A DNA stretch of 40,494 nucleotides from a virus: IMG/VR virus record IMGVR_UViG_3300045988_104813. The stretch is one strand, 5' to 3'. Shown piece by piece: positions 10,704 through 31,655 of this stretch (positions are counted from its first letter, which is position 1; the number at the start of each line of letters is the position of its first letter). A model generated the notes under the pieces. That model was not told the DNA's origin and made no database searches. It saw only the letters and a program-made list of their open reading frames with translations. The position numbers were made by a program, and so were the translations under genes.

Positions 10704-11105
10704 TTGACGAAAGAAGAGCTAAAACAGTATCGCAGTATTGTTGCAGAATTAAACGAGGTAAATGACAGAATAAACAGTAATACAGTACACGGTACTGTCA
10801 CAGGCTCTGACGCTGAATTTCCGTACGTCAAGCACTGTATTTCTGTGTCGGGTGTTGAGCCAACACATATATCTGATATTGTACTACGTCAACGATTGGA
10901 GCGGCAAAAAAACAAGATTGAATTGTTTGTTGCCGGTATATTAGACAGTGAAACACGTCGCATATTCCGATACAGGTACATAGACGGCACCGTAATGCCG
11001 TCATGGCAGTGGATTGCATTTAAGATAGGGCATTACGATGAGAGTTATCCACGAAGAAAACATAATAAATTTTTAAAAATGCCGAATTTGCCGAAAAAAG
11101 TGTGA
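10704..11105 (+). CDS. Putative late-gene transcriptional activator (sigma-70 region-4-like, DUF1492/ArpU/RinA-class)
   Basis: C-terminal RRIFRYRYIDG…SWQWIAFKIGHYDES resembles ECF region 4; last gene before a terminator and the packaging region. Confidence 0.45.
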   Translation: MTKEELKQYRSIVAELNEVNDRINSNTVHGTVTGSDAEFPYVKHCISVSGVEPTHISDIVLRQRLERQKNKIELFVAGILDSETRRIFRYRYIDGTVMPSWQWIAFKIGHYDESYPRRKHNKFLKMPNLPKKV

Positions 11106-11286
11106 TACAATTTATAATGCGAAAAGAATGAGCAAACAAAAAATAATGCAAAACATATATACAGTGCAATATTTTGTGTTCTATATCTTACCGCTCGTTA
11201 TTTTCGTAAAAAAGGTAGTGTATCGTCGTGAGATGATGGGTGAATATCTCGTGTGATTGGTGGGAGTGGAGATATTAAGTCAATTA

Positions 11287-11333
11287 AACAGATTGTATAT
11301 GTCAATCATATGCAGTCTGTTTTTTATTTTTGA
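11287..11333 (+). terminator. Rho-independent terminator (16-bp imperfect stem AAACAGATTGTATATG/CATATGCAGTCTGTTT plus TTTTTTATTTTT)
   Basis: Read directly; ends the early/middle operon. Confidence 0.55.
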
Positions 11334-11350
11334 ATGAAAGGGACATAACT

Positions 11351-12916
11351 ATGGAATTATTGCAATTAGTTGAAAAATTTAAAGATATTATCAATGTAAG
11401 CAAGATTGAAGATGCTGTAGATGAATTAAAAACAAAATTGTTAAATGATAATGAGTGTAAGAAGTTATGCGAAGATTGGATTTCAATATGTCCCGATTTA
11501 ACAAAAGATTATATGCAGATGATATTTCAATATTATTTTGCCGACCGTAAAGAGAAAATGCAAGACTACACACCAAAAAGTCTTGCAACGGCAGTCGCTG
11601 AATTATCAAAAAATGAAGATGAAAAGATATGTTTAGATTTATGTGCCGGTAGCGGAGCATTGACGATTCAGAAATGGAATAAGAATAATAATTTAAAATT
11701 TATCTGTAAGGAATACGATAGGCGAGTTATTCCGTTTTTATTATTTAATTTGGCAATTAGAAATATTGATGCCGAGGTCGTGCATTGTGATGTATTGGCA
11801 GATGAAACGTTTAAAGTGTACAGGACAAAAAAAGGCGATAGATTTGCAACAGTTGCAGAAATCGGTAAAAGTGAATTTAAGGCTGACGTCTGTATATCGA
11901 ATCCGCCGTACAATATGAAATGGGAACAACCTGTATTTGCACAATTACAGAATAGATTCTCACAGTGTGAAATTCCGCCGGAAAGCAATGCAAATTATGC
12001 GTTTGTGTTGACGGCATTAAATGAAATCAAGAGCAAGGCAAGTTTTATACTGCCGAATGGCATTTTAAGCACTGATAATAAAAAAGAGAAACAAATAAAA
12101 AAATATTTAGTCGAAATGAATTTTATCGAAAGTATAATTTTATGCCCCGATAAAATGTTTGAAGTAACGTCAATACCAACGTGTATTATTACATTCAACA
12201 AAAACAAACAACATTCGACAGTGGAAATGATTGACCTACGACAGAAATATGAAATTGAACAGCGAATGCAAAACGGGCAGTACGGAGGGGCAAGCCATAC
12301 AAACAGAACATACGCCAAAGAAGTTAAGATTATAACAGAAAGTCAAGTTCAAGACGTATTACTGCAAATTGAACAGCGTGGAAATGTAGCCGGTTATTGT
12401 AAATCTGTAAGCATTGAAGAAATAAAAAACAATGATTATGTATTGATACCGAGTCGATATATAGATTTTGATACGGTGGAAGAAGTGCATAGACCGTATG
12501 TCGATATAGTGAATGATTTGAACCGTGTTATAGCTGAAAAAAACACTTGCAAATTGACAATAAACGAAACTATCGCTAAATCAATAGGTTTTGATGTGGA
12601 AACGCTAAAGCAAGACAATAGTACATCAGATGGATTATCAGAATTAACAGAGAAACTATGTGGCAAAAAGATTGTGAAAAGTGACTATTTCAGAACGACA
12701 AAAAAGAAAAATGAAATAGTATTTTCAAACAACAGCAAAGAAAATATTTCGAGCATTTTTATGCTGATATTCAATATGTGGAAACAACACATATACTACC
12801 TAAACATCGAGGAAAACAGATATTTAGTCGAACTAAGAGATGCACTATTACCGGAACTGATGAGCGGTAAGATTGATTTAAGTGATATACAAACAGAAAG
12901 CGAGGGTGTGCAATGA
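11351..12916 (+). CDS. N6-adenine DNA methyltransferase (HsdM-like, NPPY motif) fused to an HsdS-like target-recognition domain; no endonuclease partner in the window
   Basis: Motif I DLCAGSGAL, motif IV ISNPPYNMKW; C-terminal YVLIPSRYI and LRDALLPELMSGKIDLS resemble HsdS conserved regions; start moved to ATG 11351 (AAAGGGA RBS). Confidence 0.75.
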   Translation: MELLQLVEKFKDIINVSKIEDAVDELKTKLLNDNECKKLCEDWISICPDLTKDYMQMIFQYYFADRKEKMQDYTPKSLATAVAELSKNEDEKICLDLCAGSGALTIQKWNKNNNLKFICKEYDRRVIPFLLFNLAIRNIDAEVVHCDVLADETFKVYRTKKGDRFATVAEIGKSEFKADVCISNPPYNMKWEQPVFAQLQNRFSQCEIPPESNANYAFVLTALNEIKSKASFILPNGILSTDNKKEKQIKKYLVEMNFIESIILCPDKMFEVTSIPTCIITFNKNKQHSTVEMIDLRQKYEIEQRMQNGQYGGASHTNRTYAKEVKIITESQVQDVLLQIEQRGNVAGYCKSVSIEEIKNNDYVLIPSRYIDFDTVEEVHRPYVDIVNDLNRVIAEKNTCKLTINETIAKSIGFDVETLKQDNSTSDGLSELTEKLCGKKIVKSDYFRTTKKKNEIVFSNNSKENISSIFMLIFNMWKQHIYYLNIEENRYLVELRDALLPELMSGKIDLSDIQTESEGVQ

Positions 12917-13050
12917 GTACATACAGATATAAATTTAAAAAATGGCTATTTATACGCAAATGGCGATTTAATAATCGTAAATGGTGCGAGTGCCGGCACA
13001 AGCGCAGAACGTTAGAACGTGCGTTGACAAAAAACGGATATACGATGTAG
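12913..13050 (+). CDS. Possible 45-aa highly basic K/R/W-rich peptide (MSTYRYKFKKWLFIRKWRFNNRKWCECRHKRR…), translationally coupled (ATGA) to the methyltransferase; alternatively non-coding pac-region repeats
   Basis: ORF read directly; below the track cut-off; contains three AAATGG(C/T) repeats. Confidence 0.2.
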   Translation: MSTYRYKFKKWLFIRKWRFNNRKWCECRHKRRTLERALTKNGYTM

Positions 13051-13083
13051 TTAATCGGAAAATGTGAAAGCGAGGTGATAAGA

Positions 13084-13557
13084 GTGACTGAAAAGCAAAA
13101 GTTGTTTTGTGAGGAATATTTGATTGATTTGAACGCGACACAAGCGGCATTAAGAGCGGGATATTCGGAAAAGACGGCGTATTCGATTGGAAATGAGAAC
13201 TTGAAGAAACCTGAAATTCAAGAATACATACAAAAGCGGCTAAAAGAGAAAGAGGACGCTCTTATCGCCAAACAAGATGAGGTGTTAAAGACGTTAACCG
13301 CCGTTATGCGACGTGAGAAACCCGAAACGGTTGTTGTGACGTGCAAAGCACGTAAATCACACTATGACGACAAGGGCAAGAAAGTCACTGACGAGGCGGA
13401 GCAACCGATATGTGTTGAAATACCGACAAAGGTGTCGGACGTAAACAAAGCGGCGGAAATGTTGGGTAAATACTACGCATTGTTCACAGAAAAGCTGAAT
13501 GTTGACGGTGATATGGACTACAGCATTAAAATTGATTACGGTGGTGAGGACGAATGA
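13084..13557 (+). CDS. terS: Terminase small subunit
   Basis: N-terminal LTEKQKLFCEEYLIDLNATQAALRAGYS pattern typical of phage TerS; probable GTG start with GAGGTGA RBS; directly upstream of terL. Confidence 0.8.
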   Translation: MTEKQKLFCEEYLIDLNATQAALRAGYSEKTAYSIGNENLKKPEIQEYIQKRLKEKEDALIAKQDEVLKTLTAVMRREKPETVVVTCKARKSHYDDKGKKVTDEAEQPICVEIPTKVSDVNKAAEMLGKYYALFTEKLNVDGDMDYSIKIDYGGEDE

Positions 13558-14792
13558 ACAAAATAACAGTACCGTTCAATCCGATATTTAAGCCTGTACA
13601 TCAATGTAAAAAGCGATACGTTGTGATGAAAGGCAGTGCCGGAAGTGGCAAGAGTGTTGATACCGCACAACTGTACATATTGCGTTTAATGCGTGACAAA
13701 GGGCGTAATTTGGTATGTGTGCGAAAGTCCGATATAACAAACCGTGACAGTACATTTGCCGAATTAGAATCAGCCATAAACCGTATGGGCGTTGGCAGAG
13801 CGTGGAGAGTTACGCAAAGCCCGTTGTCGTTCACCTGTATAAACGGCAACAAGATTATATTTCGTGGTGTCAACGATAACAAACAACGCGAAAAGCTGAA
13901 ATCAATCACATTTGCGAACGGAAAATTAACGGACGTATGGATTGAAGAGGCTACGGAGCTTGTGCAACAGGATTTTGAAATTATAGATGACCGTTTGAGA
14001 GGTGAACTCCCCGACGGTCTTTTTTATCAGATAAAATTGACATTTAACCCTGTATCGTCAAGTCACTGGATAAAGAAAGTGTTTTTCGATATACAGGACG
14101 ATAACGTCTTAACGCACCAAAGCACATATTTAACAAACCGATTTTGTGACGAGGCATACAGACAACGTATGCTACGTCGTAAAGAAGTTGACCCTGAGGG
14201 CTACAGGATTTACGGACTGGGTGAATGGGGCGAAACAGGCGGATTGATATTCTCAAATTATCGCATTGAAGAATTTGAAACAGATATGAGCCGTTTTGAC
14301 GCTATGGCGATAGGACAGGACTTCGGATTTAATCACGCAAACGCCATATTGACGTTAGGTTATAAGGACGGTGATATTTACGTTTGTAATGAACTGTATG
14401 TATACGAAATGGATACAACCGAAATTATCACTAAGGCTGACGGGAATTTCAGCAAAAGTCTTGTAATGTGGTGCGACAGTGCAGAGCCGGACCGTATAAA
14501 AATGTGGCGAAAGGCAGGCTATCGCGCAAGGGCAGTTGTTAAAAATCCGAACAGCATACAATCGCAGATTGACTGGTTAAAAGGCAGAAAGATACACATT
14601 CACCCGTCTTGCGTGAACGTGATAAAAGAGATACAGCAATGGCGTTGGCGAGTTGATGAGAAGTTGGGCGAGTATACTGACGAACCTGTCAATGTATTTG
14701 ATGACGCAATGGCGGCACTGAGATACGGCGTTGAGAGTTGGCGCAAGGATAAAAAAGCTAAAATCTATTCAAGAGAGGAGTACGGAATATGA
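13554..14792 (+). CDS. terL: Terminase large subunit (PBSX/Terminase_3-type)
   Basis: Walker A GSAGSGKS; size and position. Confidence 0.9.
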   Translation: MNKITVPFNPIFKPVHQCKKRYVVMKGSAGSGKSVDTAQLYILRLMRDKGRNLVCVRKSDITNRDSTFAELESAINRMGVGRAWRVTQSPLSFTCINGNKIIFRGVNDNKQREKLKSITFANGKLTDVWIEEATELVQQDFEIIDDRLRGELPDGLFYQIKLTFNPVSSSHWIKKVFFDIQDDNVLTHQSTYLTNRFCDEAYRQRMLRRKEVDPEGYRIYGLGEWGETGGLIFSNYRIEEFETDMSRFDAMAIGQDFGFNHANAILTLGYKDGDIYVCNELYVYEMDTTEIITKADGNFSKSLVMWCDSAEPDRIKMWRKAGYRARAVVKNPNSIQSQIDWLKGRKIHIHPSCVNVIKEIQQWRWRVDEKLGEYTDEPVNVFDDAMAALRYGVESWRKDKKAKIYSREEYGI

Positions 14793-16135
14793 TAATTGAT
14801 GAAGATATAGTCGCAGGCGGTGTGACACCGTTTATCATAACAAAATTGATTGAACGGCACGAGCGAGAGCGACAGAGATACCGATTGTTACACGATTACT
14901 ATATGGGCGACCACCGTATTTTAAGCCGCAGAAAAAGAGGCAAAAACGTGGCAAACAACCGTATAATGTGCAACCACGCAAAGTACATAACAGATATGAC
15001 GCAGAGTTATCTTGTCGGCAATCCTGTAACATACGCAGTATCGGACGAATACGATATTGAGGCAATCAAAAACGAATATTTGGAACAGGATATGCCGAGT
15101 GTTGACAGTGAAATCGTAAAGAATATGAGCATTTACGGCAAAGCGTATGAACTGATTTATGCGGATGAAAAAAGCAAACCGAGAAGTGTACGATTGGATC
15201 CGGAGCATACATTTGTATGTTACTCACAGTCGGCATTTGAAAAGCCGTTGTTTGCGGTGTATTACTACAAGAAATACGACCTTGACGGCTACTGCACAGG
15301 CAGTATTTGTCGTGTGTATGATGAGTCGTTTATATATACATACACAGGTCTTGACAGCTATACGGCATTGTCATTGCAAAATGTTGAACCGCATTACTTT
15401 TTTGATGTACCTATTATCGAATACAGAAATAATACGGAAATGCAGGGCGATTTTGAACAGCTTATAACGCAGATTGACGCATACAATGTGTTGATGTCAG
15501 ACCGAATAAACGACAAAGAGCAATTCGTTAATTCGCTGTTGTTTTTGTGTAATTGCGACCTTGACACCGAACAGGCAAAAAAATTATTGGTAGAACGTAT
15601 CTTAATGGGCGACGGTGATGCAAAGGCGGAGTATCTATCAAAGGTGTTGAACGAGGCTGATACAAAGGTGTTGCGTGACGACATCAAGGACGATATACAC
15701 CGTTTGTCACACGTTCCTGATTTGTCGGACGAAAGTTTCGGCAATAATTTGTCGGGCGTGGCGATAAAGTATAAGCTGTTGGGATTTGAACAGCACGTCA
15801 AGAACAAAGAACGTAATTTTGCTAAGACGTTGAGAAAACGTTTGGAGATTTACAACAATTTCTTAGTGACATTAAACGCAATGAAAGAAGTGCCGTCGCA
15901 CAGAGTTGATATAGGATTTACATATAACTTGCCTGCAAACGAACTTGAAATAGCACAGATGATTAATTACCTCAAAGGTCTTGCGTCTGACGAAACACTT
16001 TTAGAGCGTCTGCCGTTTATAACAGACGCAAAGGAAGAAGTTGAAATCGCACGCAGAGAACAGGCTGAAAAGTCCGCCGAAGATATGCGTATCGCTGAAA
16101 GTTCGGCAAGGAAAGTAAACTACAATGAAGAGTAA
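14789..16135 (+). CDS. Portal protein (SPP1 gp6-like)
   Basis: About 448 aa immediately after terL; sequence character of SPP1-type portals. Confidence 0.75.
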   Translation: MIIDEDIVAGGVTPFIITKLIERHERERQRYRLLHDYYMGDHRILSRRKRGKNVANNRIMCNHAKYITDMTQSYLVGNPVTYAVSDEYDIEAIKNEYLEQDMPSVDSEIVKNMSIYGKAYELIYADEKSKPRSVRLDPEHTFVCYSQSAFEKPLFAVYYYKKYDLDGYCTGSICRVYDESFIYTYTGLDSYTALSLQNVEPHYFFDVPIIEYRNNTEMQGDFEQLITQIDAYNVLMSDRINDKEQFVNSLLFLCNCDLDTEQAKKLLVERILMGDGDAKAEYLSKVLNEADTKVLRDDIKDDIHRLSHVPDLSDESFGNNLSGVAIKYKLLGFEQHVKNKERNFAKTLRKRLEIYNNFLVTLNAMKEVPSHRVDIGFTYNLPANELEIAQMINYLKGLASDETLLERLPFITDAKEEVEIARREQAEKSAEDMRIAESSARKVNYNEE

Positions 16136-30797: not shown

Positions 30798-31655
30798 ATG
30801 GAAATAAAAAGACCGACTACAATAGAAGAACAAATAAAAATTTTAGGTGGTAGAAAGTTAGTTATTGAAGATGTTGAATTCGCTCAAAATGTACTTTTAT
30901 CGGTAAATTATTATAATTTTACTGGTTATTTACATACATATAAAAATGCAGATGACAATTACGAAAACATTTCTTTTAATCAAGCGTATAGAATATATCT
31001 ATGCGATAGACGTATTAGGTCTACTATATTATACGCGATAGAGAGTATTGAACATAATTTAAAGACGAAAATCGCTTATGTAATAGCGATGAATACCTGT
31101 GCAACATCTTACTTAAACAAAGATATTTTCGTGGATGAAGAAGAACACCAAAAACTACTACAAAAATTTGGACAAGCAATAAATAGAAATAGTAAAATAC
31201 CATTCGTAAAACATCACATAAAGAAATATGACAGAAGATTTCCTATTTGGGTAGCTATTGAAATTTTTACCTTAGGAATGGTGTGGAATTGTTATAAAAA
31301 TTTAAAGACACCTCTAAAAAAGAAGATTGCATCAAAATTTAATATAGGTTCCGTTTATTTGGAGAGCTGGATTGAATGTATATCTTATTTACGAAATGTA
31401 TGCGCACACTATATGAGGTTATATAGATTTAAGGTACAGAAGACACCTAAAAAGAGTAAAAAACATAGTATGAATAATATATCTCACTGCATATATGACA
31501 TTATAAATGTAATGCGTTTTTTAATGCCAAGTAAAGATGAATGGAATAATTACATAATTTCTAATATTGCTCAAATCTTTGAAGAATATAAAGATGTTGT
31601 AAGTCCTGAAGATTATGGTTTTCCAAAGGACTGGGAAAAAACTTTAACATTATAA
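30798..31655 (+). CDS. Abortive-infection protein, Abi_2 (AbiD/AbiF-like) family
   Basis: N-terminal TIEEQIKILGGRKL…SVNYYNFTGY and C-terminal WVAIEIFTLG…YLRNVCAH motifs typical of Abi_2; strongly AT-rich; flanked by own promoter and terminators. Confidence 0.75.
   Translation: MEIKRPTTIEEQIKILGGRKLVIEDVEFAQNVLLSVNYYNFTGYLHTYKNADDNYENISFNQAYRIYLCDRRIRSTILYAIESIEHNLKTKIAYVIAMNTCATSYLNKDIFVDEEEHQKLLQKFGQAINRNSKIPFVKHHIKKYDRRFPIWVAIEIFTLGMVWNCYKNLKTPLKKKIASKFNIGSVYLESWIECISYLRNVCAHYMRLYRFKVQKTPKKSKKHSMNNISHCIYDIINVMRFLMPSKDEWNNYIISNIAQIFEEYKDVVSPEDYGFPKDWEKTLTL

Follow-up and report, generated by a model that had tools for sequence, protein, structure and literature searches.

In Type I restriction-modification (R-M) enzymes, the C-terminal helix of the methyltransferase subunit HsdM (M) docks on the coiled coil of the specificity subunit HsdS (S). 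Several relatives of these enzymes show a reduced or fused organization, and both half-S subunits and single chains that join M and S (M~S) act as symmetric dimers via their conserved helices (Loenen et al., 2014, PMC3874165). For example, M.XmnI and M.DrdI as well as M.XcmI are homodimeric gamma-methyltransferases with a fused S-like C-terminus, while M.AhdI is a “Type 1 1/2” enzyme with a separate half-S subunit (PMC3874165). Here, a methyltransferase gene from a virus genome sequence (IMG/VR record IMGVR_UViG_3300045988_104813; 40,494 nucleotides (nt), in the following termed the window) is compared with these systems. Its product is probably an orphan phage N6-adenine DNA methyltransferase that stands alone and has its origin in a Type I M subunit, an assessment which includes its action as a dimer and a role in the late protection of phage DNA. 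Phage orphan N6-adenine methyltransferases of HsdM ancestry are a known kind of enzyme. However, the architecture found here, in which an HsdM part is combined with the end helix of HsdS in the absence of a target recognition domain (TRD) and with a conserved family-specific insertion, seems to be undescribed in the literature searched. The gene and the segments of its product, numbered in amino acids (aa), are the following:

11351..12916, plus strand: methyltransferase coding sequence (CDS), 521 aa plus a TGA stop codon (12914-12916), taken from the list of open reading frames (ORFs).
11351..11506, plus strand: aa 1-52, short N-terminal helical segment with helices 3-14, 19-31, and 33-46 in the model.
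11507..12484, plus strand: aa 53-378, gamma-class N6-adenine methyltransferase catalytic domain of HsdM type, from Pfam PF02384, PDB, and Foldseek matches.
12266..12322, plus strand: aa 306-324, family-specific insertion MQNGQYGGASHTNRTYAKE, defined by alignment and modelled as a beta-hairpin with a loop.
12497..12544, plus strand: aa 383-398, equivalent of the HsdM C-terminal helix, from the alignment to EcoR124I HsdM and helical in the model.
12545..12727, plus strand: aa 399-459, small alpha/beta mini-domain in the model, with no Pfam, PDB sequence, or Foldseek match.
12728..12901, plus strand: aa 460-517, HsdS-like C-terminal conserved region with a long helix (aa 468-504) and the tail LRDALLPELMSGKIDLS, from hhalign and PADLOC.

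The reading frame is open on the plus strand from a TTG at 11330 or an ATG at 11351 up to the stop codon. A putative ribosome-binding site (GAAAGGGA, 11336-11343) is spaced 7 nt from the ATG, which is preferred over the TTG because all homologs begin with MEL.. at the equivalent residue (44/44 aligned). The gene limits given in the original prediction, a reading of this DNA from its letters and ORF list, are therefore correct. Public metagenome data already hold a protein (P0001) that is 100% identical over the whole length. An AlphaFold2 model of the full protein was calculated as a monomer from 45 sequences and reached a mean pLDDT (predicted local distance difference test) of 87.2.

The catalytic part is the most readily assigned. 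Pfam N6_Mtase (PF02384) covers aa 58-378 with 177.1 bits against a gathering cutoff of 20.4 (E 7e-52), a match far beyond chance, which was also obtained for 45/45 family members tested. PHROG 6380, “DNA methyltransferase,” matches aa 53-478 (E 3e-114) and the PADLOC “MTase_I” models span aa 50-420. The top PDB sequence matches are HsdM chains (3khk, 7bst_D, which is EcoR124I M, and 3lkd; E 1e-21 to 1e-19), and a search of the PDB sequences with the family profile, again led by HsdM chains, reached E-values down to 7e-38. HsdM chains likewise come first in a Foldseek search with the AlphaFold2 model (3lkd, PacII M 7vs4, 3khk, and EcoR124I M; E 1e-21 to 1e-16), followed by a second tier composed of the monomeric gamma-enzymes M.BseCI, CamA, and M.TaqI (E 5e-11 to 8e-10) and the Type IIG enzyme BpuSI (E 1.6e-9). 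Motif I (DLCAGSGAL, aa 96-104, nt 11636-11662) precedes motif IV (NPPY, aa 184-187, nt 11900-11911) and an extra C-terminal module follows both; the key residues of the two motifs are invariant in 45 homologs (50-92% identity). Taken together, these matches confirm the gamma-class, HsdM-like assignment of a phage-borne N6-adenine methyltransferase and the two motifs on which the original prediction had based it, and the catalytic domain is complete by sequence.

The catalytic domain ends with NDYVLIPSRYI (aa 361-371, nt 12431-12463), which pairs with NDFVLTPGRYV, NDYNLSVSSYV, and NDYNLNIPRYV at the close of the three HsdM structures (3khk, 7bst_D, and 3lkd). The stretch YVLIPSRYI (aa 363-371), which had been read as a signature of HsdS, consequently belongs to the NDYNLxxxRYV end motif of HsdM. 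HsdM homology continues beyond this motif, as aa 379-408 align to residues 480-510 of the EcoR124I HsdM chain, its C-terminal helix. Nevertheless, the protein is not a canonical HsdM, given its score below the equivalog cutoff (NCBIfam TIGR00497, hsdM: 92.6 bits, cutoff 242.75), its short N-terminus, and two insertions. In canonical HsdM, the catalytic domain is preceded by a region of ~150-190 aa, which is replaced here by the short N-terminal segment (aa 1-52). When the protein was aligned with canonical HsdM from two comparison loci (L002 and L003), this long N-terminal domain proved to be absent, and no Pfam match to HsdM_N was found.

The extreme C-terminus points to the second Type I subunit. 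A tblastn search of 72,556 plasmids with aa 479-513 (35 aa) returned 135 records, and 36/40 of those listed lie within genes whose annotation reads restriction endonuclease subunit S or Type I specificity protein. Two of the matches were inspected, and both belong to complete hsdM-hsdS-hsdR operons in which the matched part is formed by the last ~30 codons of hsdS. BLASTP comparison of aa 380-521 with the HsdS proteins of the two operons gave E-values of 4e-9 (28 aa, 61% identity) and 2e-10 (61 aa, 39% identity). In an hhalign comparison of the family C-terminus with a profile of HsdS C-terminal halves (probability 96.1%, E 3.4e-9), aa 460-517 are paired with the last ~55 HsdS residues and nothing is aligned upstream of aa 460. 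Eleven PADLOC Specificity_I models match aa ~440-518 (best E 1.8e-8), with one weak model extending further toward the N-terminus, and each match stops within ~13 positions of the C-terminus of the model. Judged from these alignments, the last 55-75 aa (~440/460-517) are the only HsdS-like part of the protein and correspond to the extreme C-terminal conserved helix of genuine HsdS. The terminal signature LRDALLPELMSGKIDLS (aa 495-511) was thus rightly recognized as HsdS-like. Of the C-terminal ~250 aa that had been assigned to HsdS, by contrast, only these last ~55-75 aa qualify, since HsdM homology reaches aa 378-408 and the material beyond it amounts to ~120-140 aa.

A TRD could not be detected in this material. 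The C-terminal 142 aa show no Pfam match to Methylase_S (PF01420) even at E<=10, none of the 45 family members (0/45) matches it at E<=0.01, and the C-terminal family profile found no HsdS chains in the PDB sequences. A separate AlphaFold2 model of aa 380-521 (pLDDT 78.9; pTM, the predicted template modelling score, 0.71) retrieved nothing better than E 4.7 from the PDB with Foldseek, and hhalign showed no similarity between the mini-domain and an HsdS TRD. An HsdS TRD in the C-terminal half was consequently rejected, and by both sequence and model the protein has no recognizable DNA-recognition domain. The possibility that the C-terminus is homologous to the S part found in the closest M~S fusions was likewise considered and rejected (hhalign probability 0.7%). 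The original prediction of a fused HsdS-like specificity domain therefore stands insofar as the end helix and tail of HsdS are fused to the methyltransferase. As a strict M-S fusion it fails, the C-terminal half being unrelated to HsdS TRDs.

In a joint alignment, the slot in which M~S relatives carry their TRD is filled by the mini-domain (aa 399-459). Its elements in the model are a strand (400-405), three helices (406-411, 416-424, and 426-437), and two further strands (447-450 and 456-460), after which the long helix 468-504 begins. The mini-domain contains a lysine-rich conserved hairpin, ..TKKKNEIVFSNNSK.., and its edges are conserved while its core (aa 421-450) is variable and exhibits two visible subtypes in the family, GFDVELYK.. 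and GLYDVFQMFK... With variable sequence lying between conserved helices, the arrangement resembles that of HsdS at a much smaller scale, and a role of the mini-domain in specificity may be envisaged on this basis. A second candidate DNA-contact element is the 19-aa insertion (aa 306-324), which is framed by the model strands 301-308 and 320-327 and is found neither in the M~S fusion relatives nor in the enzyme of Streptococcus phage PY1 nor in canonical HsdM. Residues R305, Q307, G309, Q310, R319, and K323, situated in or just beside the insertion, are invariant. The conservation profile of the family ranks these parts: mean entropy is lowest in the S-like helix (aa 468-510, 0.71 bits), followed by the insertion region (aa 296-325, 0.86 bits) and the catalytic core (0.99 bits), and it is highest in the mini-domain core (aa 421-450, 1.7-2.1 bits). 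Since no other segment of the protein is conserved to this degree, the S-like helix is judged to be functional rather than a decaying remnant.

The window represents a temperate siphophage-like genome with genes for an integrase, a CI-like repressor, a terminase, and an endolysin. The methyltransferase gene follows genes for a DUF927 primase-like protein, an SNF2 helicase, a VRR-NUC protein, and a late-regulator-like protein, and it precedes terS, terL, a portal gene, putative tail genes, the endolysin gene, and, on the minus strand, the integrase and repressor genes. Its immediate surroundings are the following:

10704..11105, plus strand: late transcriptional regulator-like gene, 133 aa (phrog_36, E 1.4e-15).
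11106..11350, plus strand: intergenic leader of 245 nt, characterized by sequence, terminator scan, and RNA folding.
13075-13557, plus strand: terS, terminase small subunit (Pfam Terminase_2, E 4.5e-40).
13554-14792, plus strand: terL, terminase large subunit (Pfam Terminase_3, E 2.5e-51).
14789-16135, plus strand: portal gene, labelled by gene position only.

As had been proposed, the gene stands at the head of the packaging operon, being the first gene after the late regulator and directly preceding terS and terL, and the same position is seen in homolog loci. There, the order of regulator, a gap of 160-245 nt, methyltransferase, and packaging genes recurs. The regulator is a conserved left neighbor whose equivalents carry DUF1492 or DUF722, and the packaging genes belong to three different modules (Terminase_2; helix-turn-helix-type TerS; HNH + Terminase_4 + TerL). 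The G+C content is ~0.33 in the methyltransferase gene (window positions 11001-13000) and 0.40-0.43 in the packaging genes (13001-16000). This low value and the presence beside three unrelated packaging modules suggest that the gene may be a mobile cassette which travels with the late-regulator gene.

No genes for HsdS, HsdR, or a nuclease partner were found in the window, in agreement with the proposed lack of an R or endonuclease partner, and no S subunit was found beside the gene in the homolog loci inspected, where the downstream ORFs are HNH or TerS. A separate downstream S gene of the kind found in Streptococcus phages was considered for this locus and rejected on account of these downstream ORFs and of the gap to terS, which measures only 158 nt. 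The protein is thus phage-borne and lacks a cognate endonuclease, as is characteristic of an orphan phage methyltransferase.

The leader folds better than all 200 shuffled versions (z = -3.7) and contains a terminator-like hairpin (stem 11286-11322, 16 pairs; T-run 11323-11332) ending 28 nt before the ATG, a distance that leaves no room for a promoter after the hairpin. Among 33 homolog loci, at least 10 have a hairpin with a T-run that ends 26-32 nt ahead of the ATG. Conservation of the leader sequence itself was examined against the locus of a 53%-identical homolog and gave no meaningful alignment, so that the position of the hairpin is all that recurs. Rfam revealed no known RNA family within the gene or its surroundings, the only match being a chance-level one to a microRNA. 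By analogy with lambda Q/tR', the arrangement suggests that the late operon might be entered by terminator read-through.

Elsewhere in the window, among what appear to be late tail genes, a gene for a 285-aa AbiD/Abi_2 abortive-infection protein was observed (30798-31655, plus strand; PADLOC AbiD E 1.4e-86, Pfam Abi_2 E 5e-50). With a G+C content of 0.33-0.34 compared to ~0.42 nearby, it looks like a prophage-carried defense moron.

The methyltransferase has more than 1500 detected homologs, which come from phages and prophages of gut Bacillota. When 1.84 billion representatives were searched exhaustively with a profile, 8124 relatives passed E<=1e-3 and 371 passed E<=1e-30; full-length members among the representatives listed are mostly ~500-530 aa long and are taken as the family proper. 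The prophage relatives occur in Lachnospiraceae, Ruminococcus, Eubacterium, Erysipelotrichales, Limosilactobacillus, Sporolactobacillus, and other hosts, and the nearest species-representative genomes are those of Candidatus Stoquefichus (67% identity) and Massilimicrobiota (63%). Database annotation of the family is generic (“N-6 DNA methylase,” PHROG 6380). The literature searched contained no characterized member and no recognition sequence, and a fold search of BFVD returned fragments and distant giant-virus methyltransferases only.

Many relatives (P0141, P0164, P0169-P0187, and others) show the methyltransferase as two ORFs, with a break that is always located near aa 173-180, just before NPPY. 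In Lactococcus phage D4044 (L001 4001-5517), for example, CDSs of 170 aa and 335 aa share a boundary base. In addition, profile position ~178 marks the start of ~25 representative clusters of ~330 aa, and there are also several fragments of ~175 aa that cover the N-terminus. This two-ORF form may reflect a genuine split of the enzyme, a site of frameshifting or recoding, or a recurrent assembly or sequencing error.

The next group of relatives comprises proteins of 550-606 aa with the same short N-terminus and catalytic domain, which diverge after aa ~376-395. Methylase_S is matched by 5/10 of those scanned, in the C-terminal ~160 aa and with 19-25 bits, and 3 of these 5 exceed the 22-bit cutoff. 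The proteins with such a match (P0217, P0220, and others) are, to judge by their domain content, true M~half-S fusions. In the Streptococcus phages PY1 (L011 2390-4068) and IPP23 (L012 2750-4164), the same kind of TRD was found as a separate ORF of 143-145 aa, which overlaps the end of the methyltransferase gene and is annotated as hypothetical; that of PY1 matches PF01420 with 23.5 bits. This ORF is a miniature half-HsdS composed of a TRD of ~100 aa and a helix, the fused form of which is seen in the 550-606-aa metagenomic relatives. PY1 and IPP23 thereby carry a phage M + half-S system without R that is missed by current annotations.

The reading considered probable for the enzyme of the window can be spelled out as follows. 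The methyltransferase, probably silent in the lysogen, would be made late in the lytic cycle and methylate replicated phage DNA before packaging, and the progeny would already be shielded from restriction at the modified sites on entering the next host. The HsdS-like helix would pair in antiparallel orientation with its counterpart in another molecule, and both HsdM-type helices would pack onto this pair. Such a homodimer would rebuild the four-helix core of the M2S Type I methyltransferase, with its two catalytic domains facing opposite strands. Because a canonical TRD is absent, sequence recognition would have to come from the mini-domain (aa 399-459), from the hairpin at aa 306-324, or from both, which makes a short or relaxed recognition sequence plausible.

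Several points weigh against this reading. The dimer is deduced from the homology of a single helix and the structure model is that of a monomer. Moreover, a heptad count on aa 466-510 gives a hydrophobic occupancy of the a and d positions of <=0.67, which does not correspond to a textbook coiled coil. The terminator-like hairpin 28 nt upstream of the ATG makes the timing and level of expression a matter of inference. Models of HemK/PrmC protein methyltransferases also match weakly (E 6e-8, far below cutoff) and the NPPY fold is common to both kinds of enzyme. Finally, no enzymatic, methylome, or oligomerization data on any member were found in the literature searched.

A more far-reaching proposal, which we put forward tentatively and do not expect to hold in full, regards the proteins as a TRD-free family derived from Type I enzymes. 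Two chains would zip via the HsdS helix into an M2 core devoid of S, in which a mini-module of ~60 aa and the hairpin read the DNA, and a very short or relaxed adenine specificity would blunt many host restriction systems. As a variant, the S-type helix might dock onto host Type I complexes or poison them.

It is unlikely, though still deserving of some weight, that the protein, like M.TaqI, M.BseCI, or CamA, works as a monomer, an orphan gamma-methyltransferase in which the C-terminal 140 aa would form a compact novel TRD with the helix as its structural spine and no dimer would be formed. All three enzymes are among the second-tier fold matches mentioned above, the C-terminal segment, modelled separately, forms a single unit (pTM 0.71), and the heptad pattern of the helix is weak. 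However, HsdM chains give far stronger fold matches than monomeric enzymes do, and the C-terminal model matches no known TRD. A mere spine is also at odds with a helix which is the most conserved part of the protein and is homologous to an HsdS helix with a known role in antiparallel pairing (PMC3874165).

We consider it improbable that the protein is the M component of a split system which needs a separate phage or host S subunit, docked via the HsdM-type and S-like helices, for example by borrowing or competing for the host HsdS. This arrangement is brought to mind by the separate 145-aa half-S ORF of the Streptococcus phage relatives and by the fact that the protein retains the helix through which HsdM binds to HsdS in Type I enzymes. 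Yet the window contains no S-like ORF and none adjoins the gene in the homolog loci inspected (HNH or TerS downstream). The family also occurs across many lineages of Bacillota, in which the hosts differ in their R-M complements, and the protein's own S-type helix would fill the docking position.

Far less probable still is a remnant of a Type IIG enzyme (Eco57I/MmeI/BpuSI-like) that has lost its nuclease domain, a design which the original prediction had offered as an option. Pfam Eco57I falls just short of its cutoff (25.1 bits, cutoff 25.3) and BpuSI is a fold match, but the HsdM matches are better by at least ten orders of magnitude and the C-terminus matches Type I S subunits. With its N-terminus of 52 aa and the family length of ~500-530 aa, the protein gives no hint that a nuclease domain was recently cut away, and no longer, nuclease-bearing form occurs among the closest 120 homologs or 150 representatives. 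Hardly any credence can be given to the remaining explanation, a HemK-like protein methyltransferase, an RNA methyltransferase, or an inactive pseudo-enzyme, to which weak sub-threshold PrmC/HemK and Erm matches might point. These matches lie far below the curated cutoffs (32 vs 199 bits), while N6_Mtase is matched with 177 bits. An HsdM end motif and an HsdS helix are moreover features of DNA enzymes, and the catalytic residues are invariant across the family.

Phage methyltransferases help to decide which hosts can be infected and they shape methylation patterns in gut viromes, and the present family is common in gut Bacillota prophages, yet only generically annotated. Should the enzyme indeed function in the absence of a canonical TRD, it would constitute a naturally occurring minimal form of the Type I methyltransferase core and would also offer a compact model for the way in which a conserved S helix organizes two M domains and for specificity that resides outside a TRD. 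If its specificity is instead an ordinary, fixed one, the family would add one more orphan protective methylase and the gain would be a more accurate annotation.

In comparison with known systems, the protein shares with HsdM (EcoR124I M 7BST, S. thermophilus 3LKD, and M. mazei 3KHK) the catalytic domain with motif I and the NPPY/F motif IV, as well as the closing NDYxLxxxRY(V/I) motif and the C-terminal helix that follows it. Unlike canonical HsdM, it has no long N-terminal domain, its gene has neither hsdS nor hsdR beside it, its own chain includes an S-type helix, and it contains two insertions (aa ~141-160 and 306-324) that canonical HsdM is missing. With the C-terminal conserved region of HsdS (D2 or CR2), the last ~55 aa are homologous, comprising the helix and the LRDxLLPxLxSGxI tail. 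However, HsdS has two TRDs and two conserved helices, whereas the phage protein has one helix and no TRD, and the 60 aa before its helix match nothing.

M.XmnI, M.DrdI, M.XcmI, and M.AhdI exhibit the same layout, an HsdM-like part followed by an S-derived segment that ends in a coiled-coil-type helix, and a symmetric dimer would be expected here as well. By their descriptions, these enzymes are set apart by full Type I-like TRDs and a cognate endonuclease (PMC3874165), neither of which belongs to the phage protein. Its nearest outgroup is formed by the M~half-S fusions (P0217, P0220, P0237, P0248, and others) together with the PY1/IPP23 pair. These share the short N-terminal helical segment, the phage-type insertion at aa ~141-160, the M-helix, and the phage-borne occurrence without R. 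They differ in having a real Methylase_S TRD and another tail (..YLxxMFV, e.g., ..YLENMFV, in place of LRDALLPELMSGKI) and in lacking the insertion at aa 306-324. Other phage orphan methyltransferases, such as the Dam-like enzymes of lactococcal 936 phages (PMC4190342), are likewise devoid of a cognate nuclease and are presumed to act in anti-restriction. Most of those studied belong to the Dam or C5 lineages, whereas the enzyme described here would derive from a Type I HsdM.

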